A stretch of 53,324 bases of DNA from a virus (taxonomy: Duplodnaviria; Caudoviricetes). Location of the stretch: IMG/VR virus record IMGVR_UViG_3300017758_000012, positions 1 through 53,324 of that record; one strand, given 5' to 3'. The stretch's first letter is position 1. Every line of letters starts with the position of its first letter. Positions 3,984 through 48,881 of the stretch are shown here, in pieces. Both the position numbers and the translations under genes were made by a program. The notes below the pieces were generated by a model, which worked only from the letters and a program-made list of their open reading frames with translations, searched no databases and was not told where the DNA came from.

Positions 3984-4030
3984 TTTAGTGTTTATTTTGT
4001 TATAAATATATAAAAATTTATTATTATTAA

Positions 4031-5062: not shown

Positions 5063-5117
5063 AATAATATATTACTTTTGTTATAAATATATAAAAAATA
5101 TATAAAATATGCGAGAA

Positions 5118-8994: not shown

Positions 8995-9012
8995 TTATTT
9001 TTATTATAAATA

Positions 9013-9798
9013 TTATAAATTTCTCTTAGCTGTAGTTTTAAATTCTGTAAATGTAGGAGAGTGTTTAGGAAATTCTAAATCAAATAATTTTTTAACGGTA
9101 TTAAAAATATCTAAATTTTCTTCTTGTGTTCTTTTTGATTCATGCATTTCCCATCCTTTACCTTTTATTTTTTTACCTGTTTTATCTTCTCCCCTAGATT
9201 TTGATTTTAACCATAATACTCCTACTCTATCTACATTTTTACCATAACATTCTTCATAACATTGAGCGTAGATAGCCCCTTGTAAATCATAAGTTATTTG
9301 TAGATTATTTGAGGTTTTAAAATCTATAATCCACATTTCAGTTTTACCATCAATTTCAATTTCACATACTAAATCACAAGTACCTGCTACTTTTATTTTA
9401 TCTGAAAATAAATGTACTTCTGCTTCAACTAATGTTGGATTATACTTTTCCCAAAAATCAACAAATTTTAAAAACATTTGCCAAACATCGGGATTACACA
9501 TAGGTATTCCATCATTTAAAAAATTTAATTCTTTACCATTAAGATAATCTTCAATCATTTCATGTACTTGAGTACCTTCTTCTGCTGCTTTTTTAACAAT
9601 CCAATCAGCACTAAAACCTACTTTTTTTAACCAATCTTGAAAATGTTTACCTTTTGGATAACAACTTAAAACATAAGTTATAGATGGATAGTATTTACCA
9701 TTTCTTCTATAATATCTAGCATCAGGCAAAGTTATTTGTTTAGAATCTTCACTTATTTCTAAAATTCTATTGTAAGATTTTTTTATATTTTTTTTCAT
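9013..9798 (-). CDS. PD-(D/E)XK phage exonuclease
   Basis: YPSIT, GTQVHEMIE, AGTCDL...IIDFKTS, LQGAIYA. Confidence 0.85.
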   Translation of the reverse strand: MKKNIKKSYNRILEISEDSKQITLPDARYYRRNGKYYPSITYVLSCYPKGKHFQDWLKKVGFSADWIVKKAAEEGTQVHEMIEDYLNGKELNFLNDGIPMCNPDVWQMFLKFVDFWEKYNPTLVEAEVHLFSDKIKVAGTCDLVCEIEIDGKTEMWIIDFKTSNNLQITYDLQGAIYAQCYEECYGKNVDRVGVLWLKSKSRGEDKTGKKIKGKGWEMHESKRTQEENLDIFNTVKKLFDLEFPKHSPTFTEFKTTAKRNL

Positions 9799-14202: not shown

Positions 14203-14259
14203 TTTTTATTAGTATTTTATTATAAATATATGTATTTTTTGTTTCTAATCCAAATTATA

Positions 14260-17200
14260 TTAAGCATTCGAACCTCCTAAATTGTCAGGACTGTCTTGTG
14301 TAAATACATTTTCAGATTTTAATTTATTAATTATTTTTTGAACATTTCTTTGTTGCACTTCAGTTAGATCATTTGGTATTAAATAACCATCACCAGATAA
14401 CGTTAAAGCACCTGCTGATCCTGATGGTTGGTTTGCATTTAATATAACTCTATCATCTGCTTCTACTCTTTTCCTTAAAGTCATAGCATATATTTTTCCT
14501 TCTGGTATTTTATTTTCCAAATCATTTGGGTTAGGAGTTACTACTAGTCTATCAAATAAAAATCCAGGATCTAGAGGGGCGAATGCTGTTTTAGAGGTTT
14601 GGTCCTGGTTTGAAATTAACATAGGTGATAGTGAACATGAATTATATAGTACAGATCCAGTGAAATTAGATGATAGTTCATTAGTCTCTATACTAGAACT
14701 TAAATTTAATATGTAATTAGTAGACATGTTCCAACAAACATCAGCGGGGTTTACATTAGTTACATTAGTTCTATTAAACAATGATGCTGTTATTCCAATT
14801 ATTCCAGTTCCATCTACAACAGAATGAGTATTAAGTGCTGTAAGGGAACCACTAGTATACATATAATCTTCATTTTCATCATAAGATTGAAAGTTAAAGG
14901 TTACATTATTATTAAAAGCTGATCTATATCTTTTCCATAATTCTGTAAAGCTAAAATAACCATCTGATGGAAGAGGTCCTTGTGATGTAACTCTTGTAGG
15001 TGTTATACCAGTATTATATGATTCAACTATAGTAGATTGTATCTCAAACTTAACAGTAGCACTAGCTTTAAAATTTGAATTTGTAGTCCATATATTAGGA
15101 GGCATCATATTATATCCTAAAACTGTAAAATCCTGATCTTGTTTTCCTAAAATACTAGGATTAGCGGGATCTACAAAATATGAATATGAGACCCTTATTT
15201 CATCTCCTACTTCAATATCCAAAATTTGATTATTTGTTACTCTATATTCAGGTAATAATGACCCCGATATATTCCATCTATAATAATTATTTGGGTTTTC
15301 TTTTTCATTTAAATTTAATAAAGGTAAGGAACCATTTCGAGGTGTGGAAAAAGGACCAAAAGACAATAATATATTTCCACTACTTGCTATTATAGGATTT
15401 ATATACATTCCCCTATTACCAGAAGCTCCCATTCTACTAATAGATACACTACTAGTTGTAGTTGATGAACCTAAAGGATATATATCTCCTAAACGTATTA
15501 ATTTATTCCAGGAATTAAACATCATTAATGAAGGTCCATTTATAGAAAAGGTGTTTATTAATGAGGTATTAGTGTTATCATTGAAAACAGAACTAGGTAA
15601 TTGTCCTGGGTTAGGACCTCTTAAATTTAATATACCTTGTGATTTTCCATTTTCATCTAATAAACTCGATGTATATAATAAAATTGGTTGTGGGGATTCA
15701 CTATAAAATTCTTGTGTAGAAGGAGAATAAATAATACTACCTGATGAGTAAACCTTATTAATATTAGAAGCATTAAGTACAGATGATTGAGATATTGTAT
15801 ATGCAGTATTATTAACTCCAAATCCCATATAAGAAGCACTTAAAAGAAGTGATTGAGACGCAGGAGTAATTTCTATATTTGGATTATTAACTGTTACAAG
15901 ATTACTTAAATTGCTAAAATCTTTAGCAACATCATAATCGTACCAAATTGGTAAATTATAATATTGAATAGGTGATATATTATCTAAATTTACTTGATTA
16001 GAATGGTATGCTATAAAATTAATTCCCCCAGCATTAATTTCTCTAGCTCCTACACCTAAATTTGTATAACTAAGTATAGTACCCCCTACATTATTAAAGG
16101 TTTTATTTGATTGGTTGTAAACAATTGTTGCTTCCCTTCCAGGCATAAAAGTAGAAGACATTGCTACTAAATTTTCATTACTACCATTTATTAAAGATGA
16201 AGTGATAATTGGAGATTGTTCATTTAATATTTCTTCAAAAGGAATTTGAATTAATTGATCAATATTAAAAGTAGTAGTACCAAAATATTCTTTACTTTCT
16301 AAAGAGGATTTAAAGTGAGCAATATTAATTGGATTTCTATCAATTACTGCATTTTTACCGTAGGAAGTGTCTCCCGTCCAACTACCAGTTTCACCATTAA
16401 TGTATTGAACTTTATTTTGAGTTAGTAAAAATGGAGGATTTGCTAATCCTGTAATTCCTGTATCTGTAGATCTTCCAATTGCTAAACTTTCAGAAGGTAT
16501 TCCTGTGTAAAAATTATAATCTGCACTTTCTAATAAACATCCTACATATCTTGGATTTATTATTGCTTTTGTAGTATAATTACTATCAGGTACCTCTGAG
16601 TATTCTAATAAATCTTCATCAGTAGCCGTTCCTTCCCATCCTAGTTGTGAAGCTGAAATAGTTAAGGCATAGTCATTTGGAATTCCTTCTTTTAGTTCAA
16701 AACCAGGTGATACAGGGTCAAAATCCTGATCAAATAAAAATGAGTTTTTTCTACTACCACTTACATTATTAAGAAGTGGATTATATGGGGAAGCTTGAAA
16801 TAATTGACTTGCTGTTGGTAATATTGTAAAAGCATCTCTTTTAAAGAAATGTTTAGGTCCTAAAATCTCAGGTGGAGCAGTTATAAGTATATTTGATAAT
16901 GTTCCATAAGTTCCAATAGCAGCAAAAAACATTGCTGTTGTTTGTCCCACAGCTTGAGTCCATGTTCCCGTAAAAGTTCCATTTGTGGTTGATCTAATAC
17001 TTGATCCTACACCATTAGCTGTTCCTCCAGGTGTAGATAAGGAGCTTAATCCTATGTCATAATTTGATCCTCCCTGACCATCATTACCTATACCGGATAT
17101 AGTATATTGAATGCTATATTGTACTCCAGGTATAAGATCTGTAATTGAATTTTGTAAATAAGTTGTTGTAGTTGAAGGTGTATCTACTCCTCCTTGAAAT

Positions 17201-20200
17201 ATAGTAGGAGCTAAGTATTGGGGAGAAGCTCCTGTTGATCTTGAAGCTAAAATTATTCCCGCACCACCACCAGCATTACTAGCAAAATTATTTTCATATG
17301 TAATATTTGTATTTCCAGCAGCTCCTACATTATCAGCTAAAAGTCGAACATATATATCTGAGCCATTAGTAAGTAATTGTGGAGTAATAGATCCATTATG
17401 ACCCCCTGCTGAGTTTACTGCAGTGAAAAAAGAGGAAGCCATAGTTGAATCGGAAGTTCCGGATATACATTGTACTTGTAATAAACCGTTTGTTACTGAA
17501 GCTGCTGTTACTTGAAAATTAACTTGATCTCCCCCAGAATTTGCCCCAGAAAAATTATCATTTACTGCAGGCCAAGCAGTAAGATTTTGATTACCAGGAT
17601 CTGGGTTTGTTACTGTTGCATTCCCCCAAACTCCACCAGCCCAATTAACAGAAGCTTCTATTGTTTTAGTTCCATTTGTTAATGTAATAGTTTCAGTACC
17701 TGTACCAGATGGGTTAGGACCTATTGCTGTTACAGTAGAATAAGCACTTAAAGCATTTGTTGCTGTTGAAAATTTATACTTACCATTAGCAGGTGATGGT
17801 AGTGATGTTTGCATAGAATCATTATATTGTACAGCTACATAGTATCTTGTAACCCCAAAACCATCATTTATTTTTATAGTTTTATTTGAAGTAGTACCAG
17901 AAAAACCATTATTAACAAATAATAATGAATCACTACTAGCTGCTCCAACTTTAGATCCCGAAGGATAAACTAAACTAGCTGTTGCTCTAATAGGTACTGC
18001 AGTTGCTGGACCATTACTTCCAGGTACTGTAGGAAATCTTGTTGTATTATAAGGACCAGGTAATGCTAAATTTAATGAGGGTGGTGTATATGCTAGATTA
18101 GCATCTGGGTTTTTATTATTTCCATCAGCGAATATTCTATAGGGATTATATTGAGAGGGAATAACTTCAAAATTACTGCCACTAAATTCACCATCATAAA
18201 ATTCTTCTTGAGTATTTACTGTAACTGTGTCCCCAGTAAAAGGATCTAAAACATTATATGATTGAGTAAATGCTGTATAAGATGAAGTTGGTGTATTATA
18301 TTTATTAACACTTCCTCCTGCACTTCCTGTTAAGGAATGCATTCCTATACTTGAAGTAATTAGAAGATTTTGTTGCGACATTATACTATTAAATCCGGTT
18401 TGAGTAGTAGCTCCAAAGCTATTAGAGCCGGTTTCAGGCGTCTTAGCTACAGGAGTTTGTGTATGCATACCAATCACTGCATCGGTTTTATTTCGTTCTA
18501 ATAGATGTTGTTTTACGATAATTCCTGTACTTAAACTAGTACGAGCAGGAACATAATTTTTAATTGCCTTAAATAGTGAGGTTTCATAAAATTTTATTAA
18601 TCTATTATAATCATATTCTTTTTCTATTATAGTAGGTAATCCTGTATATCTAGGATCATTAATAGTAATACCTTGATATTTTTTAAAGTAATCATTTGCT
18701 ATACGAGTTAATTCAGGATATCTATCTGAGCTTTCTGATATAAATCTTGGGTCTGCTATTGCATCAGAAACTACTCCATGCCCAAACGTTGCAATTATAT
18801 CATCATTTATTTCATTTTGAAATGAAAATCCAACTTCTAATGAATTTAAATCTTCTGTATAACTAGCACTTTGTTCAAATTCTTGTTGTATACTTCTAAA
18901 AGGTGATAAAACAGTACTATACTCATTTTTATCAATTACTTGAATTTTATTTTTTATTCTATTCCTAATACCAGCTGATGGCTGGTCCATGTAGTTTATT
19001 TGGGTATTAGGTTCTAAGTATGATGATGTTAATGATGTTGTATATGTACCATCACTTCCTGCGTAAACAATAGTATAACCACTTCCAGTATTATAAATAT
19101 TTGAAATAGGTGCAAGTGGGTAAAGAAATGATGAAGTATATAATGTTCCTTTTTTATTAACTAAAGAAGGATGTAATGATCCTAAAGCACTTCCCCCAAA
19201 TGATGGAAAGTTAATTATATCAGGTGTTCCCCCAAATTTAAAAATAGCTACAGCACCTCCATCCTCAACTGCAGCTAAAGAAACCCCTGCAGAACCCGTA
19301 ACATCAGTATATTCTAATTCATTTCCTAATGGTAGTCTAAAAGATAATAAATCATAAGAACTACCTTCTCCAGTATTTGAATCTTCATGACCCTGAATGG
19401 ATTCAGGATTCATTACATAATCATTAAATTGAGATGATGATAATGCTCTTCTATAATATCTAAATTCTTGAAATGATCCTGAAAATGAATCACCTAAACC
19501 TATACCAGCTGTACTACCAACTACAATTGATGTTGGTCCTATTAATTTATTATAGTCAGCAGTTGCAGACATATATCCTCCTAACATAACACCTCTTGCT
19601 GAAGGAAGAGCTCCATCATTAGCAAATCTATTCCAAGCTTCATTAACCCCATCATTTCCAATAGTTGTAAGTGTTGATACTCCTTGAAATCCTATTTGAT
19701 TACCATCATAACCATCATATATATTATTTGCTACTTTTAATTCAAACTGATTATTTGTAGCATTTTGATTTGATGCTGATATGTGAGTTTTTCTTTGCAA
19801 TTGTACAGACCACCAACCATCATTAAAAAATGGTAATGATATAGGAGTTGATTCTCTATACCCACCAGCTAATGATGAAGATATTCTAAAAGATAAACTT
19901 CCATATTGGCTAGTTGTTGGTAAAACAGATCCTGAATATGATCCTGATTGTGATCCTGAGTAATGTAATGTAATACCAAAATCGCTATATGTTCCACTAG
20001 TTGTAGAATTTTTTACTAATAAAGATTGAGAAAAATTTGATGTTGCTGTTATAGGTTCTGCTGCTTTAAATCTAAACTGAATGCAATCAGGAACAGCTAT
20101 ATCAGGAACAGCTGCTGTTTCATAATAATTACCTGTTAAAGGTGCCCATGGGATTCTTATTGATCCACTAGGTGATAATGCTCCTTTTTTATAGTCATAA

Positions 20201-22158
20201 GTAGTTAAAGCATTACTATAACGATTCATCCATAAATCATAATCATTTTTATCATCCTTATTTTTACCCCCAAATTCACTTATACGAAGCATTGTATTAG
20301 GAACTCCCCATATATTAATTAATTGTCTTAATCCAGTAACAGTTCCTTTTCTTTTTACTAAAGAAACCATATTATGAAAAATTCTTTTATAAATTTCTTG
20401 AGCCGTATTATCTAAAGGATAAGGAAAAGAAGGATCTGCTAATGCTATAACATACCCTAAAGTAGATTGTTCTTGATCATAATAATTTATAACTGAACCA
20501 GAAGCTATATCTATGTAACGATCAATATATTCTAAACCTGATCCTGTTGCAGGAAATACTCCTACCCCATTAACATTAAATCCTATAGAATTAAAGTCAT
20601 TACCATATGTTTCAAATCCTAAAGATTCTATTACATCATCAGCCATACCTAAAGGTAAAACTGATCCTGTTAAGCCTGAATTTGTATTTCTAACTTGTTC
20701 GACAGCTTCAGTATAAAGATACATTTCATCAAAAGTTTGACCTGTCATGTTTACAAACTTAACATATTGATCATTACTATTATTATCAGTAATATATGGA
20801 GGAATTAAATAATATAAATAATCTTGATTGTTTTCATCATATCTAGAAGCTGAGTATATTTGGTTTTTTCCTGTATTATAATATAAATTATTTTCATCTG
20901 TACTCCCAAACCAATTTGATACAGCTGAACTTGTTACTGAGTAGTTTTTATAAGGGTATGTTGATGAGTATTTAGGCCATGATTCAGATCCTGTTACATA
21001 ATATAAAAAATATTCATAACTATCAAATTTACTAATAATTTTATTAATATTATTACTAACAGAATTATAACTAGAAGAATAGTTTGGAGTAGTATTTGAT
21101 GCTCCCGTTATGGTTTCAAGATTTGATAATTCTGCTTCATAAGCTTCAATTGAAACCATTTTATCATAAAAATTATTTAATCTTTGTTCGGCAGAAGAAA
21201 ATTTTACAAATTCACTCCAATCTCCCCAATTTTTAGTTAAAAATACACCCTTTTGGTCTTGTAAAGAATTAAATTGATAATAAGATTGAGAACTATTTGT
21301 GTTAACTAAATCTGTTAGTGATTTAAAATTAGTAGAATTATTAACTTTATCTTTAATATCTATATTATAATTAGGACCCTTTAATGAAAGTAAATTATCT
21401 ATAAATTCTAAATTAGGATTAAATTCTACTTCAAAAACCTGAGTTTCTCCTACTTTTGTAATTATTTGAAGTTCTTCTTCTAACTGATATTCTGCAGGGA
21501 GGGGTTGGTATAATTTAATTAAAATAGAAGTTGGGTCTGAAGAGCCCTCAGTTGAAGGTTTTTCTAATTGACTATTTATTCCTATAAAATTTCTGTTCCC
21601 TATAAATGATATATAAAATTCATCAACATTTTGTCTAGCACTTAATTTATTTTGAAAATTATTATAATAAGTTTCTATTTGTTGAGATGTTAAAAAATTA
21701 TTTTGGATTCTTAATTCTGTTCTATCTCCAGAAATATCTTTTATAAAATAGGGATGCTGTTCATAACTTCCATCTTCTTCTATATCTAAAGCTTCAGATC
21801 CTAATTCATAATCTATAAAATTATAAACAGCATAAAACTTACCATTTGAATACCCTTGATTATAAATGTCTTCATTTGGGTGTAATTCAAATTGATTATA
21901 AATTGAAGTAGAAGATGTTGATGTAGAAGTACCTAATTCAGGCAGTAAAAATGATCCATTACCTTTATAGTCTAAATCTGTATATAATATAGTTTTAGTA
22001 TAATCATATATATAAAATTGAGTTTTACTCTCAAACTCAGTAAAAGATCCTGTTAATTCTATTGATGGAACAATAGCATCTAAACTTAATTCAAATCCTT
22101 CTTGAAAAAAGGTTTCGGCATTTAGCTGTGTTAAAGATGAAGAGATTGGTATTGCCAT
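14260..22158 (-). CDS. Very large baseplate wedge/tail protein (2632 aa) with LamG/ConA-like domain
   Basis: KRKGTVTGLRQLINIWG resembles the P2 gpI/T4 gp7-type motif; NDGWWSV...FSGSFQEFRYYRRALS is LamG-like. Confidence 0.7.
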   Translation of the reverse strand: MAIPISSSLTQLNAETFFQEGFELSLDAIVPSIELTGSFTEFESKTQFYIYDYTKTILYTDLDYKGNGSFLLPELGTSTSTSSTSIYNQFELHPNEDIYNQGYSNGKFYAVYNFIDYELGSEALDIEEDGSYEQHPYFIKDISGDRTELRIQNNFLTSQQIETYYNNFQNKLSARQNVDEFYISFIGNRNFIGINSQLEKPSTEGSSDPTSILIKLYQPLPAEYQLEEELQIITKVGETQVFEVEFNPNLEFIDNLLSLKGPNYNIDIKDKVNNSTNFKSLTDLVNTNSSQSYYQFNSLQDQKGVFLTKNWGDWSEFVKFSSAEQRLNNFYDKMVSIEAYEAELSNLETITGASNTTPNYSSSYNSVSNNINKIISKFDSYEYFLYYVTGSESWPKYSSTYPYKNYSVTSSAVSNWFGSTDENNLYYNTGKNQIYSASRYDENNQDYLYYLIPPYITDNNSNDQYVKFVNMTGQTFDEMYLYTEAVEQVRNTNSGLTGSVLPLGMADDVIESLGFETYGNDFNSIGFNVNGVGVFPATGSGLEYIDRYIDIASGSVINYYDQEQSTLGYVIALADPSFPYPLDNTAQEIYKRIFHNMVSLVKRKGTVTGLRQLINIWGVPNTMLRISEFGGKNKDDKNDYDLWMNRYSNALTTYDYKKGALSPSGSIRIPWAPLTGNYYETAAVPDIAVPDCIQFRFKAAEPITATSNFSQSLLVKNSTTSGTYSDFGITLHYSGSQSGSYSGSVLPTTSQYGSLSFRISSSLAGGYRESTPISLPFFNDGWWSVQLQRKTHISASNQNATNNQFELKVANNIYDGYDGNQIGFQGVSTLTTIGNDGVNEAWNRFANDGALPSARGVMLGGYMSATADYNKLIGPTSIVVGSTAGIGLGDSFSGSFQEFRYYRRALSSSQFNDYVMNPESIQGHEDSNTGEGSSYDLLSFRLPLGNELEYTDVTGSAGVSLAAVEDGGAVAIFKFGGTPDIINFPSFGGSALGSLHPSLVNKKGTLYTSSFLYPLAPISNIYNTGSGYTIVYAGSDGTYTTSLTSSYLEPNTQINYMDQPSAGIRNRIKNKIQVIDKNEYSTVLSPFRSIQQEFEQSASYTEDLNSLEVGFSFQNEINDDIIATFGHGVVSDAIADPRFISESSDRYPELTRIANDYFKKYQGITINDPRYTGLPTIIEKEYDYNRLIKFYETSLFKAIKNYVPARTSLSTGIIVKQHLLERNKTDAVIGMHTQTPVAKTPETGSNSFGATTQTGFNSIMSQQNLLITSSIGMHSLTGSAGGSVNKYNTPTSSYTAFTQSYNVLDPFTGDTVTVNTQEEFYDGEFSGSNFEVIPSQYNPYRIFADGNNKNPDANLAYTPPSLNLALPGPYNTTRFPTVPGSNGPATAVPIRATASLVYPSGSKVGAASSDSLLFVNNGFSGTTSNKTIKINDGFGVTRYYVAVQYNDSMQTSLPSPANGKYKFSTATNALSAYSTVTAIGPNPSGTGTETITLTNGTKTIEASVNWAGGVWGNATVTNPDPGNQNLTAWPAVNDNFSGANSGGDQVNFQVTAASVTNGLLQVQCISGTSDSTMASSFFTAVNSAGGHNGSITPQLLTNGSDIYVRLLADNVGAAGNTNITYENNFASNAGGGAGIILASRSTGASPQYLAPTIFQGGVDTPSTTTTYLQNSITDLIPGVQYSIQYTISGIGNDGQGGSNYDIGLSSLSTPGGTANGVGSSIRSTTNGTFTGTWTQAVGQTTAMFFAAIGTYGTLSNILITAPPEILGPKHFFKRDAFTILPTASQLFQASPYNPLLNNVSGSRKNSFLFDQDFDPVSPGFELKEGIPNDYALTISASQLGWEGTATDEDLLEYSEVPDSNYTTKAIINPRYVGCLLESADYNFYTGIPSESLAIGRSTDTGITGLANPPFLLTQNKVQYINGETGSWTGDTSYGKNAVIDRNPINIAHFKSSLESKEYFGTTTFNIDQLIQIPFEEILNEQSPIITSSLINGSNENLVAMSSTFMPGREATIVYNQSNKTFNNVGGTILSYTNLGVGAREINAGGINFIAYHSNQVNLDNISPIQYYNLPIWYDYDVAKDFSNLSNLVTVNNPNIEITPASQSLLLSASYMGFGVNNTAYTISQSSVLNASNINKVYSSGSIIYSPSTQEFYSESPQPILLYTSSLLDENGKSQGILNLRGPNPGQLPSSVFNDNTNTSLINTFSINGPSLMMFNSWNKLIRLGDIYPLGSSTTTSSVSISRMGASGNRGMYINPIIASSGNILLSFGPFSTPRNGSLPLLNLNEKENPNNYYRWNISGSLLPEYRVTNNQILDIEVGDEIRVSYSYFVDPANPSILGKQDQDFTVLGYNMMPPNIWTTNSNFKASATVKFEIQSTIVESYNTGITPTRVTSQGPLPSDGYFSFTELWKRYRSAFNNNVTFNFQSYDENEDYMYTSGSLTALNTHSVVDGTGIIGITASLFNRTNVTNVNPADVCWNMSTNYILNLSSSIETNELSSNFTGSVLYNSCSLSPMLISNQDQTSKTAFAPLDPGFLFDRLVVTPNPNDLENKIPEGKIYAMTLRKRVEADDRVILNANQPSGSAGALTLSGDGYLIPNDLTEVQQRNVQKIINKLKSENVFTQDSPDNLGGSNA

Positions 22159-24972: not shown

Positions 24973-26835
24973 TTATAATGGTACTACTCTTCCTACAATA
25001 TCAGATGTAGGATATTTTAATTCAAAAATCATAGGATCTACTGAAGGATATATAATACCATTATTAGTTGCTGCTGATATATCATATGAATAATCACTAT
25101 ATCCTTTACTTGCTCCTGCTATATTTTTAATAAATACATTAGTTACAGTTTGTACCCCTTCTACTTTATCGATTAATATGCTTAAACTTTTTAATAAAAT
25201 AGGTTGATTTATATTCCAATTATCTATACTAAAATACTCTGTTAAAGAATTTATACAGTTTAAAATTACTTCATTATTATTAAAATTAGGTAATACTATT
25301 ATATCAAATTCACAAGTTATATTAATAATATAAGCATCTTTAATTTTTATAGAATCATTTATCATTCTATATTCAGATAAATAAGTTTTTAAATTTTGTT
25401 TTAAAGTTGAAGAAGCTGTTCTTAATGTTTTATTTGAATTATAAGATAAAACATACATATCTAAAATTGTAGGTAATTCACCTATTCCATATTCTGCTAC
25501 TTTAGTAGGTTGAATAAAAGCTTTTGCTATAGTACCTATATTAGCGGGCATACTTAATGCTCTAATTAAATAATCTTGTTGTGTAACAGTTCTTAGTTGA
25601 TTTTGAAAATTACCTAAAGCATTTTGTCTAATTTCTTCAACTGTATCTGCACCTTGTCCCCCATCTGCTGCTAATATATTATTTGTTGCTAAAGAATTAA
25701 ATATAATATTAGCTAATGGAGTGTTTGTAAGATCTGGGTTTTTAAATACTACTCCTTCATTATTAAAATTAGTTAATGTGCCAGATTCAACATTGGCAGA
25801 TAATCCGCCCCCTGTTAAATATCTTATAGTTAAAGTTGTATTAGCAGGTGCAATACCATAAGTATCAGTAAACATAAAATTTAAAGGAGAATAAGCTGCT
25901 GTTAATTTGTCTTTTGAAAAAGCTAATCCTGTACCCACATTATCAGGGTTTGGAACTAAATCTTCATCATTGTCAGTTACAGTTCCTGCTCCAAAGCCTA
26001 ATTGAAGGGTAGTAGAATTTAAAAATCTTGTTGTAAATCTTCTTTGAACTTGTTTTAAATTTAATAAATTAGGAGCATCATCTTGAATTGCATTTGGATC
26101 TGTATATGAAGCATTTATTTTTGTAGTAAATACAGTATCCTGTGCTAAATTTAATACTTCATGCCATTGGTTTCCATCACTATCAAAACAATCTAAGACA
26201 TTGATAATACTAGAAGCATTTATATTTACTGTTGGGTATTTAGAAGGAGCGTTAAATACACTTTGTATTGAATTAATAGTCCCCGATATTGCTTTTCTCG
26301 TTTTCTTTAGTAAAAATCTTTGGGGTGTATTAGCTGATAAAGAGTAAATAGAAATATCCGTTGGATCTTGAGAGGAAGAAACAGAAAAATCACAAACATC
26401 TTCTGTTATAAAATTAATACTAGCATTTTCATTAGAAGTTAATTGAAAACCACTTGGGATTTTTAAAGCATAATCAAAATCAGGTACAGATGCTCCATTA
26501 ACATCAATTTTATTAGGTAATAATTGATAAATAGCAACATCTACAGTTGCCGCAGTTGTAACTTTAGGTTTAGAACCTAACATATAAGCTAAATCAAATA
26601 AATTTTGTTCTTGTCTAGCATATTGTATAAAAGTTTCTTGTATTTGATTATCTAAATAAAAGGATAAAACATCTCCTACATAAGCAGCCATTTCAATAAA
26701 TAACATTCCTGTTGAATCTGTAGAAAAATCATTATAAGTGTTAGGAAAATATGTTTGCGAATAATTTATAAGAGAATTTCTAAAACTATTAAAATTTCTT
26801 TCAGTATATACTATATTTCTATTTAAATTTGCCAT
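24973..26835 (-). CDS. Baseplate wedge subunit (T4 gp6 / baseplate J-like)
   Basis: AYVGDVLSFYLD, YLTGGG..ANV, GGQGADTVEEIRQNA, QLRTVTQQDY. Confidence 0.9.
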   Translation of the reverse strand: MANLNRNIVYTERNFNSFRNSLINYSQTYFPNTYNDFSTDSTGMLFIEMAAYVGDVLSFYLDNQIQETFIQYARQEQNLFDLAYMLGSKPKVTTAATVDVAIYQLLPNKIDVNGASVPDFDYALKIPSGFQLTSNENASINFITEDVCDFSVSSSQDPTDISIYSLSANTPQRFLLKKTRKAISGTINSIQSVFNAPSKYPTVNINASSIINVLDCFDSDGNQWHEVLNLAQDTVFTTKINASYTDPNAIQDDAPNLLNLKQVQRRFTTRFLNSTTLQLGFGAGTVTDNDEDLVPNPDNVGTGLAFSKDKLTAAYSPLNFMFTDTYGIAPANTTLTIRYLTGGGLSANVESGTLTNFNNEGVVFKNPDLTNTPLANIIFNSLATNNILAADGGQGADTVEEIRQNALGNFQNQLRTVTQQDYLIRALSMPANIGTIAKAFIQPTKVAEYGIGELPTILDMYVLSYNSNKTLRTASSTLKQNLKTYLSEYRMINDSIKIKDAYIINITCEFDIIVLPNFNNNEVILNCINSLTEYFSIDNWNINQPILLKSLSILIDKVEGVQTVTNVFIKNIAGASKGYSDYSYDISAATNNGIIYPSVDPMIFELKYPTSDIVGRVVPL

Positions 26836-27595: not shown

Positions 27596-27640
27596 TGTTA
27601 GTTTTATTATAAATATTAATAATTTATGTTTTTATATCAA

Positions 27641-29548
27641 TTATAATCCAGTAGGTATAGGTAAACTATTTCTACCAAATTCAAAATACCACTTATCAGC
27701 TATTGTTAAACCTCTATTTGCATCTTTTAAATCAAAATAAGTACTTGAATTTGGATTACCCCCACTAGGATACCAAAATGGTAATTCAGAAGCTATTTGG
27801 GCGTTTCCATTATACCATACTATCCCTAGCGTATTTAAAAGTTTTAGAAAAACTTTAGTTTTTGCATATGCTTTTCTTTGTTCAAATGTTAAACCATCTT
27901 CAGCAGTATTAAAATCAGGTGGGAGTAAATTATCAGGTCTTAAATTTACAGTTTCAACAATATTAATTTCAGCATCATAAATAGCTTCCAATTCAGCAGA
28001 TGATATTAATTCTGTAGATGTTCCATTTATATAAATTCCATTAATAATAGGTTGATTATAACCTATTCCCTTAGAATTAAAATATTCTTTTAAAGGATCA
28101 TTAAAACTATAAGGTCTATCTGATAAAAATAAATAATTTGCTACTTCAAAAATAGCTTGCATAAGAGGTTTTCTTTTAGCCATTTCTGGTCTTAAACTTA
28201 TAAATTCACTTCCTATAGTATTATCATTAAATAAATTTTCAGCTGTTGCTGCTAATCTTTCTGAATATGGGTATAATTTATTATTTGAATTGTTAGCAAA
28301 ATCTCCGTCATTTTGCCATCTTTTTTCACTTGAATTATAACTTTTTCCTATATTATCTGCGGCATTTAATAAAGATCGAGCTTGTGCTCTTATTTGTGAT
28401 ATAGCCCCATTTAATAGTTCTTCACTTACAGTTTTAGCATAATCTGCTAAAAATAATTTTTTAATAGTAGAATCTAATACTCTATCACCCTGTTGCCATT
28501 CATATCCTTCATTAGCTACAGCTTGTTCTAAAACAGTTCTTGAATTATCAAATGCTTCCTGAACTAATGTAGGATAATAACCTTTATTAGGTCCTTGATC
28601 TTGTGATAATTCCCAAGCTAATTCATATAATTCTTCAGCTTCTTCTCTACTAGCACCATAAATAGACATTAATATAACAATTTGTCCTTCTTTAAATATA
28701 GCTTTTAAAGGATCTTCTGCTGGTTCTGGGGGTGGGAATATTAAATCTTTAGTATCAATTAACCATTTCATCTCATTAACTAAAACTAAATTTGATGAAG
28801 AAAAAGATTCATCTCCTAATAATGTTTCTACAAGTGCATTTTCATTATAAAATTCTCCATCTATAACAGATTCTTTATTTTGTGCTATTATTTGTTTTTT
28901 ATCAAATGAAAAATCTGTAGATAAAAAATTTAATCTTAAATAATAATCTCCATATAATAATCCTGGGGGAGTTGTTAGTATTTCTTCTAATGCTTCGTTA
29001 GTTAATACTCCTACAAAATTTTCAGTTGTTGCCTCTAAATCTTCAGCTGTAATATTAGGGTCTTTTTCTATACAATCATTTAAAACAACATCAAATTCAT
29101 TTAATTTAGTAATTACTTCTCCAACATCTTTTTTAATTATATCTAAAGCTTCAGGAATTGAATCTAAGGATGCTTTTTCTTTATCTATTAAAGTCCCTAA
29201 ATTATCTAAAGCATCAGAAAAATTATTAAATACATTTAAAGGTAAACCTACACCAGGAGGAACAGATGAGGGTGCTGGGATTTGCTTTATTATAGTTTTT
29301 CCAGTATTTAAAGCTTCAGCTGCTATTTCAGAACCTTTTGCTACTTTATTTAAAGTAGCTATTTTTTGTTCTATTTGTTCTAAAGCACCATTAATTTCAT
29401 TTTTTTGAATTATTAATTTTTTTAATTCATCAGTTGTTGGGCAACCTTCTTTAAATTTATCAATTAATACATCTAGGGATTTGTTAAACTGAAATGTTGC
29501 TCTAGTTATACTAGTTACAATTTTTGATATAAAATCTGCTAAAGCCAT
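27641..29548 (-). CDS. Hypothetical helical protein (structural module)
   Basis: 635-aa ORF coupled to neighbours. Confidence 0.7.
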   Translation of the reverse strand: MALADFISKIVTSITRATFQFNKSLDVLIDKFKEGCPTTDELKKLIIQKNEINGALEQIEQKIATLNKVAKGSEIAAEALNTGKTIIKQIPAPSSVPPGVGLPLNVFNNFSDALDNLGTLIDKEKASLDSIPEALDIIKKDVGEVITKLNEFDVVLNDCIEKDPNITAEDLEATTENFVGVLTNEALEEILTTPPGLLYGDYYLRLNFLSTDFSFDKKQIIAQNKESVIDGEFYNENALVETLLGDESFSSSNLVLVNEMKWLIDTKDLIFPPPEPAEDPLKAIFKEGQIVILMSIYGASREEAEELYELAWELSQDQGPNKGYYPTLVQEAFDNSRTVLEQAVANEGYEWQQGDRVLDSTIKKLFLADYAKTVSEELLNGAISQIRAQARSLLNAADNIGKSYNSSEKRWQNDGDFANNSNNKLYPYSERLAATAENLFNDNTIGSEFISLRPEMAKRKPLMQAIFEVANYLFLSDRPYSFNDPLKEYFNSKGIGYNQPIINGIYINGTSTELISSAELEAIYDAEINIVETVNLRPDNLLPPDFNTAEDGLTFEQRKAYAKTKVFLKLLNTLGIVWYNGNAQIASELPFWYPSGGNPNSSTYFDLKDANRGLTIADKWYFEFGRNSLPIPTGL

Positions 29549-31138: not shown

Positions 31139-31172
31139 AATTTTTGATTATAAATATAAAAAATTTTAGCTT

Positions 31173-31982
31173 TTAAGATGAAAAATAACCACTTTCTGAA
31201 AATATAATATATTTTTCTTTGAATACTTTGTATAGTTTATTAGCTATTTTAGTTATTTTAGGAGTTTTTACATCGATCATTTCTCTTATATAGATATAAA
31301 GTGCTTTTTTATTAAAAACATCTATAGCATCTCTTTTTCTAAATAATTCTAAAATACAATCAGCTATTTGAGCATCATATTCCTTAGGAAAATAGTCAAA
31401 AATATTTGTAGTCATATGTTTTACATATAAATCAACAAAAATAGATAATCTATCCCCTTCTTTATATCCTTTATTAAATAACTCATCTCCAAAATTATTA
31501 TCTAACTCTACAAATTTTTGTGATGATTGTTCTAATTTAGTATTTAATATAAAAAAGGAATTTTCTCCAATATCCAAATTTTGATGTTTAGATATATCTC
31601 CTATATCAATAGATTCTATTTTTTTCTTATAATTTTTTTGGTTATATACTATTAACCATCTTTTTACAATAGTACCAAAATATGAATAAGCTTTTGCTCC
31701 TTTACTAGGATCAAACAAATGAATTTTATCTAAAAGAAATACCATAATCTCATGTTGTAAATCTTCTAAATTTTCAACCCCATCTGTATAATAAAACTTA
31801 AAAGTGTGTATTATATTTTCAGTTAACTTATAAAAGGGATAATGTATTTCTCTGGAGTATATATTACTTTTAAATAATGAATCTTTACTTGTATTATAAG
31901 CAACAATAGCATCTTCTGTTTCTTGAGTAAAATAATTTCTTTTCTGTCTTTTTTTCTTAGCTTCTCTTATTATATTATCCAT
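31173..31982 (-). CDS. Phage sigma factor, T4 gp55-like
   Basis: Region-2-like EDLQHE...FDPSKGAKAYSYFGTIVKRWL. Confidence 0.7.
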   Translation of the reverse strand: MDNIIREAKKKRQKRNYFTQETEDAIVAYNTSKDSLFKSNIYSREIHYPFYKLTENIIHTFKFYYTDGVENLEDLQHEIMVFLLDKIHLFDPSKGAKAYSYFGTIVKRWLIVYNQKNYKKKIESIDIGDISKHQNLDIGENSFFILNTKLEQSSQKFVELDNNFGDELFNKGYKEGDRLSIFVDLYVKHMTTNIFDYFPKEYDAQIADCILELFRKRDAIDVFNKKALYIYIREMIDVKTPKITKIANKLYKVFKEKYIIFSESGYFSS

Positions 31983-33786: not shown

Positions 33787-33834
33787 ATAGTATAAATATA
33801 ATACTAATATATAAAAAATCCAAATTACCCCTAA

Positions 33835-34072
33835 AGGGATCCACCACCACCGGGCTTATACGACTTGCCCTGTTAAATGCCGTTTAGCTAGGGTACCTCT
33901 TAGGCAGCCATTGCTAGTTCAACTTGTTCGCCAGTTATGCGTATGATCTTCATTATATCCTTACTTTATGTCAAATACCTGTACATCCCCGTATTTTATT
34001 GTTTATATTTAGTGGAGATGGTGGGAATCGAACCCACGTCCAAAAAAGCAGCTAATATAACTATAAACGATC
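33835..34072 (-). ncRNA. ssrA: Circularly permuted (two-piece) tmRNA; outer ends approximate
   Basis: Minus strand: GGAC-GTGGG-TTCGATT-CCCAC-CATCTCC-A (34041-34013), 22-nt AT-rich spacer, GGGGATG...GAC (from 33990), then ATAACT and the tag frame. GGGGATG/CATCTCC forms a 7-bp acceptor stem with G3.U70 and A73. Confidence 0.9.
33900..33932 (-). other. tmRNA proteolysis tag reading frame (A)GEQVELAMAA*
   Basis: GGC GAA CAA GTT GAA CTA GCA ATG GCT GCC TAA, preceded by the ATAACT resume context. Confidence 0.85.
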
Positions 34073-34083
34073 AAATATAAATA

Positions 34084-34284
34084 TTATACATTCCAATCCT
34101 CCTCAGCAATTTGCAATGCTAAAAGGGGAGACATACTTCCATCTGATTTAGACATAGTTACTAAAGCATAATACATAACTTCAGTTAATTTTTGTTGTTT
34201 ATTTACTCTATCTAATATTTGAGATATTTCTATTATCTCATCACTCCCTACTTTATCTAAAAACTCTTCTTGAAATTTATCCAT
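34084..34284 (-). CDS. Hypothetical protein
   Basis: 66-aa ORF. Confidence 0.65.
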   Translation of the reverse strand: MDKFQEEFLDKVGSDEIIEISQILDRVNKQQKLTEVMYYALVTMSKSDGSMSPLLALQIAEEDWNV

Positions 34285-39794: not shown

Positions 39795-39968
39795 AATGTA
39801 ATTTTATTATAAATATTATCAAATTCATAAAGCCGTCTAAGATTTCTTCTTCCTAACATACCCACATACCTAGATACGTATATACTCCCCACCATTGAAA
39901 AATTTATTAAAAAAAATAATTTGGGGGTATGGAATTTTCCAAACCCTTACCCATATGGGAAGTAGTAA

Positions 39969-40049
39969 TTAAAAGTGTAGCGCTAGAGAAAAAACCACCA
40001 CCATGAGTATAATATAAATGGCTGGTGCGATGTCAATTTTCTCTTTCAT
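39969..40049 (-). CDS. Possible 26-aa membrane peptide
   Basis: Own translation MKEKIDIAPAIYIILMVVVFSLALHF; A-rich upstream region. Confidence 0.35.
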   Translation of the reverse strand: MKEKIDIAPAIYIILMVVVFSLALHF

Positions 40050-40059
40050 ATTATTATTC

Positions 40060-40984
40060 ATGGTCATATATAGATTAAGCTGGAATATTAAATGGTAAAG
40101 TAATTGTACTAGGGTGTTACTTGTATATGACTTAATGATGACGAAATTGGTTTACAAAAGTTTTCCAAGGAGGTGATATGATTATTGTTATTCCAGCGTG
40201 GGAGAAGAATGTTACGGTGAAGATTAATACCAACCACCGGTACCTTATATCAATATATACTCATCCGGTGACACTCTTATAAAATCATCACTAAATTGAA
40301 TGTAGGGTTGGTCAATGATATAAGTATATACAATCGATGGGTTATCTACGTGTACGATCTCTTAAGTGGTCCACATCCTTTCTATCGCGTATCCACGCCA
40401 TATGGACATCCGCGCACGGTGGGTATTATTATATAGTACGGCGGCGGTACGCCCGCCAATGGTAGGTATGTAGTAGATATAGCGATAATAGTTGTATCGA
40501 ATCCAGTTACGCGTACGGTGAAGATATTATATAATAAGGTACCCCCAACCTTGGTATAAGGTGCTACCGCATTAACTAATAAGTATAAAATATGTAATAA
40601 GGGGGTACGGTCAACTTACCCACCGTAGTATTATTCCCCACGGCTGGTATTATTACCACAACCGTTCACCCATAAATGTACGACCCCTCCCCCACATATC
40701 CACGCCCTCCCACACATACCTTGCGGTTCACAACCATTCACAATTAATTATTTATGAAAATTCGTGAACAGGGTTGGTTCACAAGTATATATTTGGTAAC
40801 TATAGTAGAGTTTGGATGCGCATCAAATGGGGGTTAACACCACCTCGCTTCTATGTCATATAACCCCATTATTCATTGTCACATGCAATTGATATTTATC
40901 ATCTACTTGTCATAATTGGTAGGTGCTTGTCCTACTTATGGATTTAGAAATGGAGCCCACGCAACACTCCACGTAGTTACCCGT
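40060..40984. other. Non-coding, more GC-rich island with nested inverted and direct repeats (candidate ncRNA, origin or terminus)
   Basis: No ORF of 60 aa or more; multiple hairpins and repeats (see findings). Confidence 0.55.
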
Positions 40985-41134
40985 TTATTCCAGTCTATTA
41001 CCCAATGAATTTCCATCTCTATCTACGTCATCGCTTAAATAAACTCCATAGATAATACACCCACACCCAATAATTGTCCAGTTCAAAATCAATGCACTTA
41101 TCCCAAGTAACATCCACATTAACCATTTATTCAT
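40985..41134 (-). CDS. Small membrane protein, 49 aa
   Basis: Own translation MNKWLMWMLLGISALILNWTIIGCGCIIYGVYLSDDVDRDGNSLGNRLE. Confidence 0.5.
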   Translation of the reverse strand: MNKWLMWMLLGISALILNWTIIGCGCIIYGVYLSDDVDRDGNSLGNRLE

Positions 41135-41144
41135 ATCATTATCA

Positions 41145-41369
41145 TTATTTAATTTTATCAATTATCCACTCGGGGAAGGTCCACTTCTTAGCGATGCGAT
41201 GTACCTTTATTCCCCAATGCTCAAGTGAAAGTATTTTAGTTAAACACGGCTCACATATGATATTTTTACCTGATCCCTCTTTCTTCACCGTAATCTCTAT
41301 CCACGCTGAATTTACTTCATCACACACATTACATCTCCTCTTCCACTTGACTTCCCTTATTCGTTTCAT
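41145..41369 (-). CDS. Small Zn-finger-like protein
   Basis: CNVC...CEPC. Confidence 0.6.
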   Translation of the reverse strand: MKRIREVKWKRRCNVCDEVNSAWIEITVKKEGSGKNIICEPCLTKILSLEHWGIKVHRIAKKWTFPEWIIDKIK

Positions 41370-41536
41370 ACTTCTTGATCATTCCACCAATCATCTTCAC
41401 TATCAAATTCATCTTTATAGAATTCTTCCAATCGATCTTGCTTACGCTCATCTGCTATACCCTCCATATAATTAACGAAAAATCCTGCACCAATAACTAG
41501 CGCAATCACACCAATACCTGCTAAAACTTCTATCAT
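41366..41536 (-). CDS. Small membrane protein with acidic tail, 56 aa
   Basis: Own translation MIEVLAGIGVIALVIGAGFFVNYMEG...DDWWNDQEV; ATGA overlap with the next gene. Confidence 0.6.
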   Translation of the reverse strand: MIEVLAGIGVIALVIGAGFFVNYMEGIADERKQDRLEEFYKDEFDSEDDWWNDQEV

Positions 41537-41609
41537 AACCTATTTATTTTAATTAATAACTGTATATACGTAGTAAATCAATGCAATATGTAGAGAAGAG
41601 CTTGAAGCT

Positions 41610-42479
41610 TTATTTTTCTCTTATTATTGCTTTTAATTTTCTTTCCTCTGCTTTTAATCTTACTTGCTCTTTTTTTACTTTTTTTAATCTCATTTGAGCT
41701 ATAAACTTTTTAGGTATAAATAATACATCCCAATTTTTATCTATATTTCCCTTACCTAATATTTTGTAAGTATAACCTAAGTCTAACAATGATTTATATT
41801 TATTTTCTAAATTTAATTTTGATATTGGCTCCTTTTTACTATAATCATCCATACATTCCATAACAATTATAGGTTTGAATTTTTTTATTGTGTTTAATCC
41901 TCCTTTTATTACTTTTTCTTCATATCCTTCTACATCTATTTTTAAATAATCTAGTCTATCTAAAGTTAAAACATCAAGATTAATTAAATCTATTTTAGTT
42001 TCAATACTATTAGTTGATCCATTTTCAGCAGAACTTAAAACTTCATTAGTAACCATACCTCCTTCTAATATAGTTGCTCCAGAATTATTATTCCCAATCC
42101 AACCTATTTTTGTTGACTCAATCTTATCTCCTACACCTACTTGTTTTGATATAACATTTTTACATTCATTTAATGATATGTTCTTATTTAATAAATCAAA
42201 AGATTCTTTTGTAGGTTCAAAAGCATAAACAGTTTTAGCTAATTTACTAAATACCATAGTAAGTGTACCAATATGAGCCCCTATCTCTACTACTACAGAA
42301 TCAGAATTAATATATTTTGAAGCTAAATAGTGTTGATACTCTTCCCATCTATATCCCTTTCTTATACAATCTGATATTATACAATTTTTATAAAGTTGGA
42401 ATTTAATAGTGTGTTCTTTAAAATAATTTCTTACATCCCAAACTTTTTCATCTACTATAAATGTATTATTTTTTCCCAT
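41610..42479 (-). CDS. FkbM family methyltransferase
   Basis: VEIGAHIG, YAFEP, LKIDVEGYE. Confidence 0.9.
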   Translation of the reverse strand: MGKNNTFIVDEKVWDVRNYFKEHTIKFQLYKNCIISDCIRKGYRWEEYQHYLASKYINSDSVVVEIGAHIGTLTMVFSKLAKTVYAFEPTKESFDLLNKNISLNECKNVISKQVGVGDKIESTKIGWIGNNNSGATILEGGMVTNEVLSSAENGSTNSIETKIDLINLDVLTLDRLDYLKIDVEGYEEKVIKGGLNTIKKFKPIIVMECMDDYSKKEPISKLNLENKYKSLLDLGYTYKILGKGNIDKNWDVLFIPKKFIAQMRLKKVKKEQVRLKAEERKLKAIIREK

Positions 42480-48203: not shown

Positions 48204-48881
48204 TTATTTTTTAGTTATAAATATTCTATCTTCTCTATCTATTTTTTTTATATAGGGATTAAGAACCCTCCTTTTATGTTTAGTTTTATCAAAGTAAGCT
48301 CCAAATATTCTTTCATACATTTCTGTTTCTATTTTATTGGTTGGGGGATTAATTAAAAATTTAAATAATTTACTTAAATCAGATCTTGTTATTAACAAAG
48401 TATTATGTTGGCATAAAATAAAATCTTCATTTACCATATCATCAAAATTTATATTTTGTTTAAACATTTTATGATTTAATAAATCTTGAGATGAAAAACC
48501 TCTTCCCATAAGTTTAAATCCTCCAGAATGGAATATAGTATAAGGAGAATTATCTTCTATCAAATCAATATCAAATGGTTTTTCAAAAATAATTGTATCT
48601 TGTAAGCAAAAGTAAAAATCATAATATGGAAAATTATCATGAGCATATTTATAAGCTCCCCATTCATAATTTTTGTTTTTGTTAAATATTATTTCTACAT
48701 CAGGAAATTTACTTTTTATTATATCATAAGTTGTTAATATATTACTATCATTATCTACACATACTATTGCAATACGAAAATGATTAATATTTATAACTTT
48801 ACTATATACACTTTGAATACTATCTAATAAAGATGAAGGAGGATTATAACAAGAATATACTACTAATACAGATCTATCCAT
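48204..48881 (-). CDS. Glycosyltransferase family 2-like
   Basis: VCVDNDS, NYEWGAY, CLQD, ERIFG. Confidence 0.7.
   Translation of the reverse strand: MDRSVLVVYSCYNPPSSLLDSIQSVYSKVININHFRIAIVCVDNDSNILTTYDIIKSKFPDVEIIFNKNKNYEWGAYKYAHDNFPYYDFYFCLQDTIIFEKPFDIDLIEDNSPYTIFHSGGFKLMGRGFSSQDLLNHKMFKQNINFDDMVNEDFILCQHNTLLITRSDLSKLFKFLINPPTNKIETEMYERIFGAYFDKTKHKRRVLNPYIKKIDREDRIFITKK

Follow-up and report, generated by a model that had tools for sequence, protein, structure and literature searches.

A compact permuted transfer-messenger RNA gene with Bacteroidota-like features and no pseudoknot 1, conserved in phages of marine viromes

Introduction

Two-piece transfer-messenger RNAs (tmRNAs) are known from bacteria, where Rfam describes an alpha (RF01849), a beta (RF01850) and a cyanobacterial (RF01851) lineage, and from phages, where they have been reported in the OM43 phage Melnitz and in pelagimyophages; 53 of 133 unique phage tmRNAs were classed as two-piece by ARAGORN, in a table that includes crAss-like phages and Cellulophaga phage phi4:1 (PMC9004378). 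The Rfam model RF04321 (tmRNA_permuted) was built from alpha, beta and cyanobacterial seeds in work that counted 79 phage tmRNAs (PMC11915505). Here we analyse a permuted tmRNA gene in IMG/VR virus record IMGVR_UViG_3300017758_000012, whose full 53,324 bases (the window) have an estimated completeness of 33%, a GC content of ~28% and open reading frames (ORFs) nearly all on the minus strand. A first-pass annotation had taken all phage tmRNAs to be one-piece, a premise that the published two-piece forms overturn (PMC9004378).

The gene is a conserved member of the known class of phage-borne two-piece tmRNAs. Like those of Melnitz and HTVC008M (marine T4-like myophages), it is phage-borne, marine and permuted, has an intact tag frame, and belongs to a system for which no phage SmpB is reported (PMC9004378). 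HTVC008M is also detected by both ARAGORN and RF04321 (90.6 bits), but its tmRNA is of the alpha type with the A-initial tag ANFNEYALAA, whereas the window gene is shorter, with no pseudoknot 1 and a tag that starts with G. Unlike the Melnitz/HTVC008M group, the window has no glutamine riboswitch over the Rfam threshold and its phage is similar to Flavobacterium phage immuto rather than belonging to the Kyanoviridae. With bacterial two-piece tmRNAs it shares the gene order, a predicted cleavage into two RNAs that pair with each other and fewer pseudoknots than in one-piece forms, but it fails all three lineage models, lacks pseudoknot 1 and carries UUUGAC. With the one-piece tmRNAs of Bacteroidota (RF00023) it shares the 5' tRNA-like domain GGGG[A/G]UGAC.GG.UUUGACAG, a GGC resume codon, often followed by GAA, and a tag ending in ...YA[L/M]AA; those RNAs, however, are ~350-405 nt long and match the standard model over its full length, while the phage gene, with its permuted order and single pseudoknot, would yield ~226 nt of mature RNA. 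What is new is a compact form without pseudoknot 1, with Bacteroidota-like features, outside the three described lineages and widespread in marine viromes. The accessible text of the literature searched contained no description of a permuted tmRNA lineage of Bacteroidota phages.

Results

Detection and structure of the gene

ARAGORN calls a single permuted tmRNA (tmRNA*) in the window (33809-34104(-), tag GEQVELAMAA), and Rfam 15 assigns the locus to RF04321 at 67.5 bits (cut-off 47; E 6e-11; 33900-34072). The gene spans 34072 to ~33813 on the minus strand, slightly beyond the 3' limit of 33835 first proposed. The arrangement is as the first-pass annotation had read it: an acceptor piece holding the T arm and the acceptor 3' strand lies upstream of a 22-nt AT-rich spacer and of the coding piece that begins with GGGGAUG, so that the 3' half of the tRNA-like domain precedes the 5' half. 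The domain comprises a 7-bp acceptor stem with G3.U70, the discriminator A73 and a T arm with a GGUUCGA-type loop. Both alanine identity elements, G3.U70 and A73, are intact as claimed, and CCA is indeed incomplete, the encoded 3' end being CUA. The short tag frame opens with a resume codon and closes with hydrophobic, Ala-rich residues, its stop codon lying in the helix 5 loop. Together the two mature RNAs would total ~226 nt (60 + CCA, and 163). By comparison, a 2005 survey that found pseudoknot 1 in nearly all tmRNAs gave 250 nt for the shortest complete one (PMC1168896). The unusually small size agrees with the initial reading.

Covariation across related phages, proposed at the outset as a check, proved strong. 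Pairing was counted in a MAFFT alignment (A1) of 33 compact-subfamily rows, 28 of them distinct. Across the distinct sequences 87.2% of cells in the proposed pairs are paired, compared with 42-45% when partners are slid by 1-3 columns; both sides change in 24 of the 50 pairs, and the covariation score of 0.314 (0.06-0.12 when slid) was reached by none of 500 shuffles. The T arm pairs in 100% of cells and shows four pair types at a single position, and the acceptor stem pairs in 98.5%, with G3.U70 kept in 27 of the 28 sequences. The three segments of helix 2 (P2), which had been correctly paired from the window alone, reach 82-96%, and helix 5 reaches 94.6%, one of its pairs changing from C-G to U-A in 10 of the 28. 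The predicted association of the two pieces is thus supported by covariation. In the pseudoknot that follows the tag, 94.1% of stem-1 cells pair and compensatory changes occur. MAFFT put stem 2 out of register (65% paired), so a register-free script was used instead; it found both stems in 25 of the 28 distinct sequences but in only 52 of 2700 shuffles. The stem-2 sequence takes several forms, and these comparisons support the predicted pseudoknot. The minimum-energy fold of the precursor recovers the same helices.

For pseudoknot 1 there is no room, as had been noted: only 12 nt (12-16 nt in relatives) lie between helix 2 and the GGC codon, and no covarying partner could be seen by eye in the alignment. 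The terminal hairpin, with only 51.5% of cells paired in the MAFFT alignment, draws weak support from covariation; relatives have differing hairpins at this position, some GC-rich with a UUCG loop and a U run. In the window the hairpin and U run are a probable terminator and 3'-end protector.

Relatives and genomic setting

Relatives were gathered through the baseplate wedge protein (24973-26835), which has at least 592 in IMG/VR; 77 loci were kept, 32 of which, by a hand count, extend far enough upstream to include the syntenic place. With ARAGORN, a permuted tmRNA stands at this place in 11 of the 32 loci, tRNA genes in 10 and neither in 11. Where the baseplate protein is 55-84% identical, relatives carry tRNA genes instead in the interval upstream of the baseplate block: tRNA-Gln in three loci (L016, L019, L020) and clusters of Leu/Arg/Ser/Met/Gly tRNAs in seven (L037, L054, L060, L064, L066, L072, L075). 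In L141 a tRNA-Gln lies immediately ahead of the tmRNA. The interval appears to be a place where small RNA genes are swapped.

When IMG/VR was scanned with a pattern for the permuted gene order, at least 119 loci emerged, 104 of them with an ARAGORN tmRNA call (90 distinct). Among these, a compact subfamily with ARAGORN lengths of 286-302 carries the tags GEQVELAMAA, GEQVEMAMAA, GAQVEMAMAA, GKQVEYAMAA, GEQVEYAMAA, EHVEMAMAA and a few others, so that GEQVE[L/M/Y]AMAA and near variants are kept throughout. Of 20 compact-family loci tested, all pass RF04321 and none passes a lineage-specific model. The spacer varies in length and sequence between conserved flanks, with CCA encoded at its start in 6 of the 33 aligned rows, and the motif ATATTTATA stands upstream of most family members in the alignment. 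A blastn search of the tmRNA gene against 50,697 GenBank phage records gave no match at E 1e-5, and at E 10 T-arm matches only. The compact permuted form was seen in viral contigs only; the scan of bacterial genomes, from which we took reference sequences, used a 3' pattern common to many phyla and too general to reveal bacterial copies.

Beyond the compact family, six viral loci (L088, L089, L100, L113, L170 and L201) encode permuted tmRNAs with G-initial tags (GAYNAPLALAA, GTFNSPLALAA) and the usual UUCGAC. They are the top non-family matches of the coding-piece profile (14-17 bits over profile positions 1-98), and this group may link the compact family to larger forms. Two named phages also have permuted genes with G-initial tags like that of the window: Maribacter phage Panino (PP540027; tag GKVMNVSFAPTVRQFA, RF04321 62.2 bits), whose record labels the tmRNA, and crAss-like phage cr115_1 (NC_055898; tag GNTSYIMNYSRIAA, 37.5 bits, under the cut-off), both permuted according to ARAGORN. 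These are podophages of 77 and 100 kb with longer spacers and different tags. The crAss form and the window family have in common AUAACU-GGC, ACAAGUU and the pseudoknot motif ACGGC...AUGUCGU, shared motifs that suggest common descent; the nhmmer family profile did not reach the crAss form. The permuted genes that crAss-like and Panino-like phages carry may be relatives of the compact family. The available parts of PMC11590407 do not mention permutation. RF04321 had no match in Cellulophaga phage phi4:1, which appears as 'Permuted' in Table S1 of PMC9004378. In Panino (locus L417, 27557-27889) the tmRNA feature overlaps tRNA-Asp, tRNA-Thr and an opposite-strand 'hypothetical protein' CDS (27669-27818), the last probably a false call inside the RNA gene. 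The caveat raised at the outset, that the form might already be catalogued, therefore holds in part: Rfam 15 and ARAGORN detect it and Panino's copy is labelled, but the compact variant is only partly catalogued, although it may already be in the tmRNA database of PMC11915505.

Expression, processing and promoter

Sequencing runs of 14 mostly marine studies contain the DNA stretch, and 28-47% of its words occur in six RNA-labelled runs, which come from four studies. Record 17 of run X19 is a 193-nt contig that matches, without a mismatch, positions 33870-33990 and then 33828-33899, which amounts to a closed 163-nt cycle. On the RNA strand the junction links the final G of the hairpin at the 3' end (33828) with the G1 of GGGGAUG (33990), the predicted RNase P site. 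Since the 5' partner of this head-to-tail junction falls exactly on the predicted 5' end, it would be hard to obtain from DNA, and it suggests a discrete 163-nt coding piece with a 5'-phosphate and a 3'-OH, circularised in the cell or during library preparation. Cutting of the precursor into two RNAs is thereby suggested, and the gene is probably expressed and processed. Runs X15 and X17 cover flanking genes too, and X20 covers the upstream region and acceptor piece, where RNA and DNA, or precursor and product, are not separable; other RNA runs span the spacer or flanks, where precursor and DNA look alike, and the uncovered parts of X19 and X20 carry no weight.

The motif ATATTTATA occurs 15 times in the window (9.4 +/- 3.0 expected), 12 of the copies being on the gene strand. 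Nine of these 12 end 4-19 nt ahead of an ATG ORF start and one lies ahead of the tmRNA, a placement that implies very short leaders. Shine-Dalgarno sites are largely missing in Bacteroidota and their phages. In the window a 4-mer Shine-Dalgarno core precedes 1 of 54 ORFs (under the window's own background of 13%), as compared with 3 of 47 in immuto and 25 of 50 in the SAR11 phage HTVC008M. The near absence of such cores, together with the short distance from ATATTTATA to the ORFs, suggests that translation is leaderless or uses short leaders. A 269-aa ORF (31173-31982(-)), some 2 kb downstream of the tmRNA, matches Sigma70_r2 with 24.6 bits against a cut-off of 24, and this sigma-like protein could read the ATATTTATA element. 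Its proximity and the placement of the motif point to phage-driven transcription that would start at about the first base of helix 2.

Lineage and host

The three lineage models of bacterial two-piece tmRNAs all stay below their cut-offs: 25.3 bits against 50 for RF01849 (model positions 82-177 only), 42.5 against 84 for RF01850 (81-162 only) and 44.8 against 70 for RF01851, with matches that span little beyond the tRNA-like part. As a control, HTVC008M matches RF01849 over its full length (83.8 bits, positions 1-355). The standard one-piece model RF00023 reaches 38.3 bits against 47, on the acceptor piece only, and the gene order is permuted.

As a Bacteroidota reference we used an even sample of the phylum, comprising 81 genomes and 76 ARAGORN calls, in which 77 of the 81 genomes have a one-piece tmRNA. 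The tRNA-like domain of the window has UUUGAC where the RF04321 consensus has UUCGAC, and the corresponding TTTGAC replaces TTCGAC in 15 of the 76 Bacteroidota tmRNAs but in 1 of 72 from other phyla, a sample chosen by a shared 3' end and labelled by titles, of which a few may be Bacteroidota sensu lato. G-initial tags occur in 12 of these 15 TTTGAC tmRNAs, in 20 Bacteroidota tags in all and in 6 of the 72. The 22 distinct G-initial Bacteroidota tags all resume at GGC and 11 begin GGCGAA, as the phage tag does, which bears out the earlier remark that (A)GEQVELAMAA starts like Bacteroidota tags. The 'UUUGACAG' signature is common to the phage family and Bacteroidota tmRNAs, and entries from Bacteroidales, Bacteroidaceae and Alistipes read GGGG[A/G]TGAC.GG.TTTGACAGC, which is nearly the consensus of the family. 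In the set of 90 distinct viral permuted genes, 19 of the 23 with TTTGAC have G- or E-initial tags, and 53 of the remaining 67 have A-initial tags.

In nhmmer searches the acceptor-piece profile scores all groups alike (means of 25.6-26.5 bits), while the coding-piece profile gives a mean of 4.8 and a maximum of 14.5 bits for Bacteroidota tmRNAs, a mean of 0.7 for other phyla, and no match in the alpha phage, the beta form or the crAss form. For the tRNA-like domain, which is too short for a decisive tree, the nearest-neighbour mean identity is 0.667 versus 0.60-0.63.

By baseplate wedge protein the closest cultured phages are Flavobacterium phage immuto (44.7% identity) and then Microcystis phage Mel-JY01 (43.8%); the 484-kb uncultured phage LR756508 is also among the closest, and none of the three has an RF04321 match over the cut-off. 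The most likely host is a marine member of the Bacteroidota, and we hold a host in this phylum to be probable.

Other features of the window

Coordinates of the tmRNA features and of the promoter-like motif are collected in Table 1. A region of ~1.2 kb (~39896-41144) has no gene-strand ORF longer than 58 aa and lies in the highest-GC bin (0.343, 40001-42000); it gave no Rfam or ARAGORN match, and its repeats are weak, with a single 25-nt inverted repeat at 72% complementarity only. Among the baseplate and tail genes, a 2,632-aa ORF (14260-22158(-)) with no PHROG match at E 1e-5 is probably a giant tail fibre or structural protein. The window also encodes a Zeta-toxin-like P-loop kinase domain (8197-8994(-), 58.7 bits) and an FkbM-type methyltransferase (41610-42479(-)) that also matches a TRM5/TYW2 tRNA methyltransferase model (29.2 bits against 28).

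Table 1 Positions of the permuted tmRNA gene's features and of the promoter-like motif in the window
Feature	Positions	Strand	Evidence or remark
Promoter-like motif ATATTTATA	34076..34084	-	ends 3 nt ahead of the gene's first base; putative promoter
Acceptor piece, 60 nt before CCA addition	34013..34072	-	sequence, Rfam alignment, covariation
P2c GAUC	34072-34069	-	acceptor-piece strand of helix 2
P2b GUUAUAUU	34061-34054	-	acceptor-piece strand of helix 2
P2a UGCUUU	34050-34045	-	acceptor-piece strand of helix 2
T arm, GUGGG 34037-34033 / CCCAC 34025-34021	34037-34021	-	sequence, covariation
Acceptor 3' strand CAUCUCC	34020-34014	-	pairs with GGGGAUG
Discriminator A73	34013	-	sequence
Intervening spacer, 22 nt, A/U-rich, begins CUA	33991..34012	-	presumably removed on maturation
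Coding piece, 163 nt	33828..33990	-	RNA-run contig with exactly these ends; covariation
Acceptor 5' strand GGGGAUG	33990-33984	-	sequence
P2a partner AAAGUA	33967-33962	-	pairs with UGCUUU
P2b partner GAUAUAAU	33959-33952	-	pairs with GUUAUAUU
P2c partner GAUC	33948-33945	-	pairs with GAUC 34072-34069
Single-stranded 12-nt linker AUACGCAUAACU, helix 2 to resume codon	33933..33944	-	sequence
Tag frame GGC GAA CAA GUU GAA CUA GCA AUG GCU GCC UAA = (A)GEQVELAMAA, stop	33900..33932	-	ARAGORN; conserved
Resume codon GGC; stop codon UAA	33932-33930; 33902-33900	-	sequence
Helix 5 UGCC/GGUA, stop codon in loop	33894..33906	-	covariation
H-type pseudoknot after tag	33852..33883	-	covariation; register-free search
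Pseudoknot stem 1 ACGGC / GUCGU	33883-33879 / 33864-33860	-	
Pseudoknot stem 2 GGGC / GCCC	33870-33867 / 33855-33852	-	
Terminal hairpin AUCCC-UUUA-GGGGU (33840-33827) and U run (33818-33813)	33813..33840	-	sequence
ATATTTATA minus-strand copies, examples	4001-4009, 5082-5090, 9005-9013, 14221-14229, 27608-27616, 31149-31157, 33791-33799, 39808-39816, 48216-48224	-	

Discussion

We consider it likely that this phage locus encodes a working two-piece tmRNA of a compact type. In the scheme we propose, the phage would transcribe a ~260-nt precursor from its own ATATTTATA promoter-like element, and host RNase P would cut ahead of G1. The spacer would be trimmed and, because CUA is encoded here, the acceptor piece would be completed by the host CCA-adding enzyme. 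The two RNAs would remain paired through the acceptor stem and helix 2, and the host alanyl-tRNA synthetase (AlaRS) would recognise G3.U70 and A73 and charge the RNA with alanine. Host SmpB and EF-Tu could then deliver it to ribosomes stalled on broken mRNAs during infection, where translation would resume at GGC, add (A)GEQVELAMAA and stop, freeing the ribosome and passing the tagged product to host proteases. As first noted, no smpB is visible in the window (no PF01668 match), and SmpB was not found in 87%- and 77%-complete family genomes, in two fragments or in Panino. Without SmpB in the family genomes examined, the RNA must fit that of the host, and some of its likeness to host RNAs could therefore be convergent.

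A linker of 12-16 nt matches the spacing that usually separates pseudoknot 1 from the resume codon in E. coli. This length, and the ability of a stable hairpin to stand in for pseudoknot 1 in that species (PMC3968760), make it probable that the long two-strand helix 2, which occupies the normal place of pseudoknot 1, also does its work.

As to origin, the RNA most likely descends from a Bacteroidota-type tmRNA, and the Bacteroidota link drawn in the first-pass annotation is supported along several independent lines: a Flavobacterium phage as nearest cultured relative, the scarcity of Shine-Dalgarno cores, the GGC-GAA start of the tag, the 'UUUGACAG' signature and the permuted tmRNA of Maribacter phage Panino. 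The independent permutation it proposed is plausible, the alpha, beta and cyanobacterial models having failed, although we give actual descent from a Bacteroidota tmRNA, and hence an independent permutation, somewhat less than an even chance. On a fuller and still tentative scenario, two-piece tmRNAs arose here a fourth time, independently and inside phages: a captured one-piece tmRNA of Bacteroidota type would have been permuted, losing pseudoknot 1, with a lengthened two-strand helix 2 in its place, and keeping one pseudoknot. The cassette would then have spread among unrelated Bacteroidota phages (immuto-like marine myophages, Panino-like podophages and gut crAss-like phages), occupying tRNA-gene slots under phage promoters; it would be a naturally minimal tmRNA, ~226 nt long and needing no change in host SmpB.

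Alternatively, the gene may have been captured from an alpha- or beta-proteobacterial or cyanobacterial two-piece lineage, perhaps via marine phages, to shrink and converge on Bacteroidota features that suit host SmpB, AlaRS and proteases. Marine phages often carry two-piece tmRNAs, which have moved between host classes (PMC9004378); a GGUUUGAC variant is present in the alpha-type pelagiphage HTVC008M as well; and a phage lacking SmpB is expected to be selected for host-like contacts. The nearest neighbours of the tRNA-like domain (n=27) are ambiguous on this point: 15 are other phage permuted forms, which suits a capture, while 11 are Bacteroidota and 1 is from another phylum. Against such a capture, the lineage models match the tRNA-like part only, whereas HTVC008M passes the alpha model; nor does the coding-piece profile find a match in the alpha phage or the beta form, and both the GGC-GAA resume site and UUUGACAG match Bacteroidota. 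We regard a capture of this kind as rather unlikely.

The purpose of the RNA might also differ from general ribosome rescue. Selective tagging of host proteins for breakdown, serving amino-acid recycling or host takeover, was raised for Melnitz (PMC9004378), and the phage tag does differ from the sampled host tags in its middle residues; tmRNA, however, has no known choice of target except empty A sites and nothing in the sequence supports the idea, which we find improbable. We give equally little credence, or slightly less, to a decoy whose tRNA-like domain soaks up host SmpB or EF-Tu and switches off trans-translation in the host, as proposed for the RNA of mycobacteriophage DS6A, which consists of such a domain only. 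DS6A-like molecules inhibit tmRNA (PMC4131195, PMC11915505) and pseudoknot 1 is missing here, but a decoy would not need the tag frame, resume codon, helix 5 with its stop codon and hydrophobic ...AMAA end that are conserved here with synonymous and compensatory changes. Lastly, tmRNA genes are frequent integration sites and prophage fragments of them are known (PMC9004378), but an assembly artefact, attachment-site remnant or decaying pseudogene is refuted by two complete halves, 28 distinct copies with compensatory changes, the presence of the stretch in runs from 14 studies and the same genomic place in related phages.

Several observations weigh against a working tmRNA of Bacteroidota descent. 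In profile searches the coding piece resembles Bacteroidota tmRNAs weakly (14.5 bits at most), and the neighbours of the tRNA-like domain are divided as described. Folding energy does not set the precursor apart from shuffles (z = +0.77; 154 of 200 do as well), and a co-fold of the two mature pieces gave a structure other than the proposed one. Pseudoknot 1 is absent, and it is reported to be required for tagging in E. coli unless a stable hairpin replaces it (PMC3968760). Alanylation, SmpB binding and tagging with host factors are predictions from sequence. The host assignment is likewise indirect, Mel-JY01 being nearly as close as immuto and immuto having no permuted tmRNA. The junction comes from one assembled contig (depth 8.6) of one run, with no counterpart for the acceptor piece; contigs give no direct ends, and the junction could have arisen in library preparation, though it would still mark real ends.

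If descent from Bacteroidota is true, tmRNA would have been permuted at least four times, once in viruses, and the case for regarding the two-piece form as advantageous and easy to reach would be stronger. The compact family is also a natural experiment on the minimal tmRNA, with no pseudoknot 1, one pseudoknot and ~226 nt, and thereby bears on what the pseudoknots are for. Its UUUGACAG tRNA-like domain and GGC-GAA tag may help to assign uncultured marine phages to Bacteroidota hosts. The family also indicates that abundant phages of the ocean invest in ribosome rescue while relying on the SmpB of their hosts.

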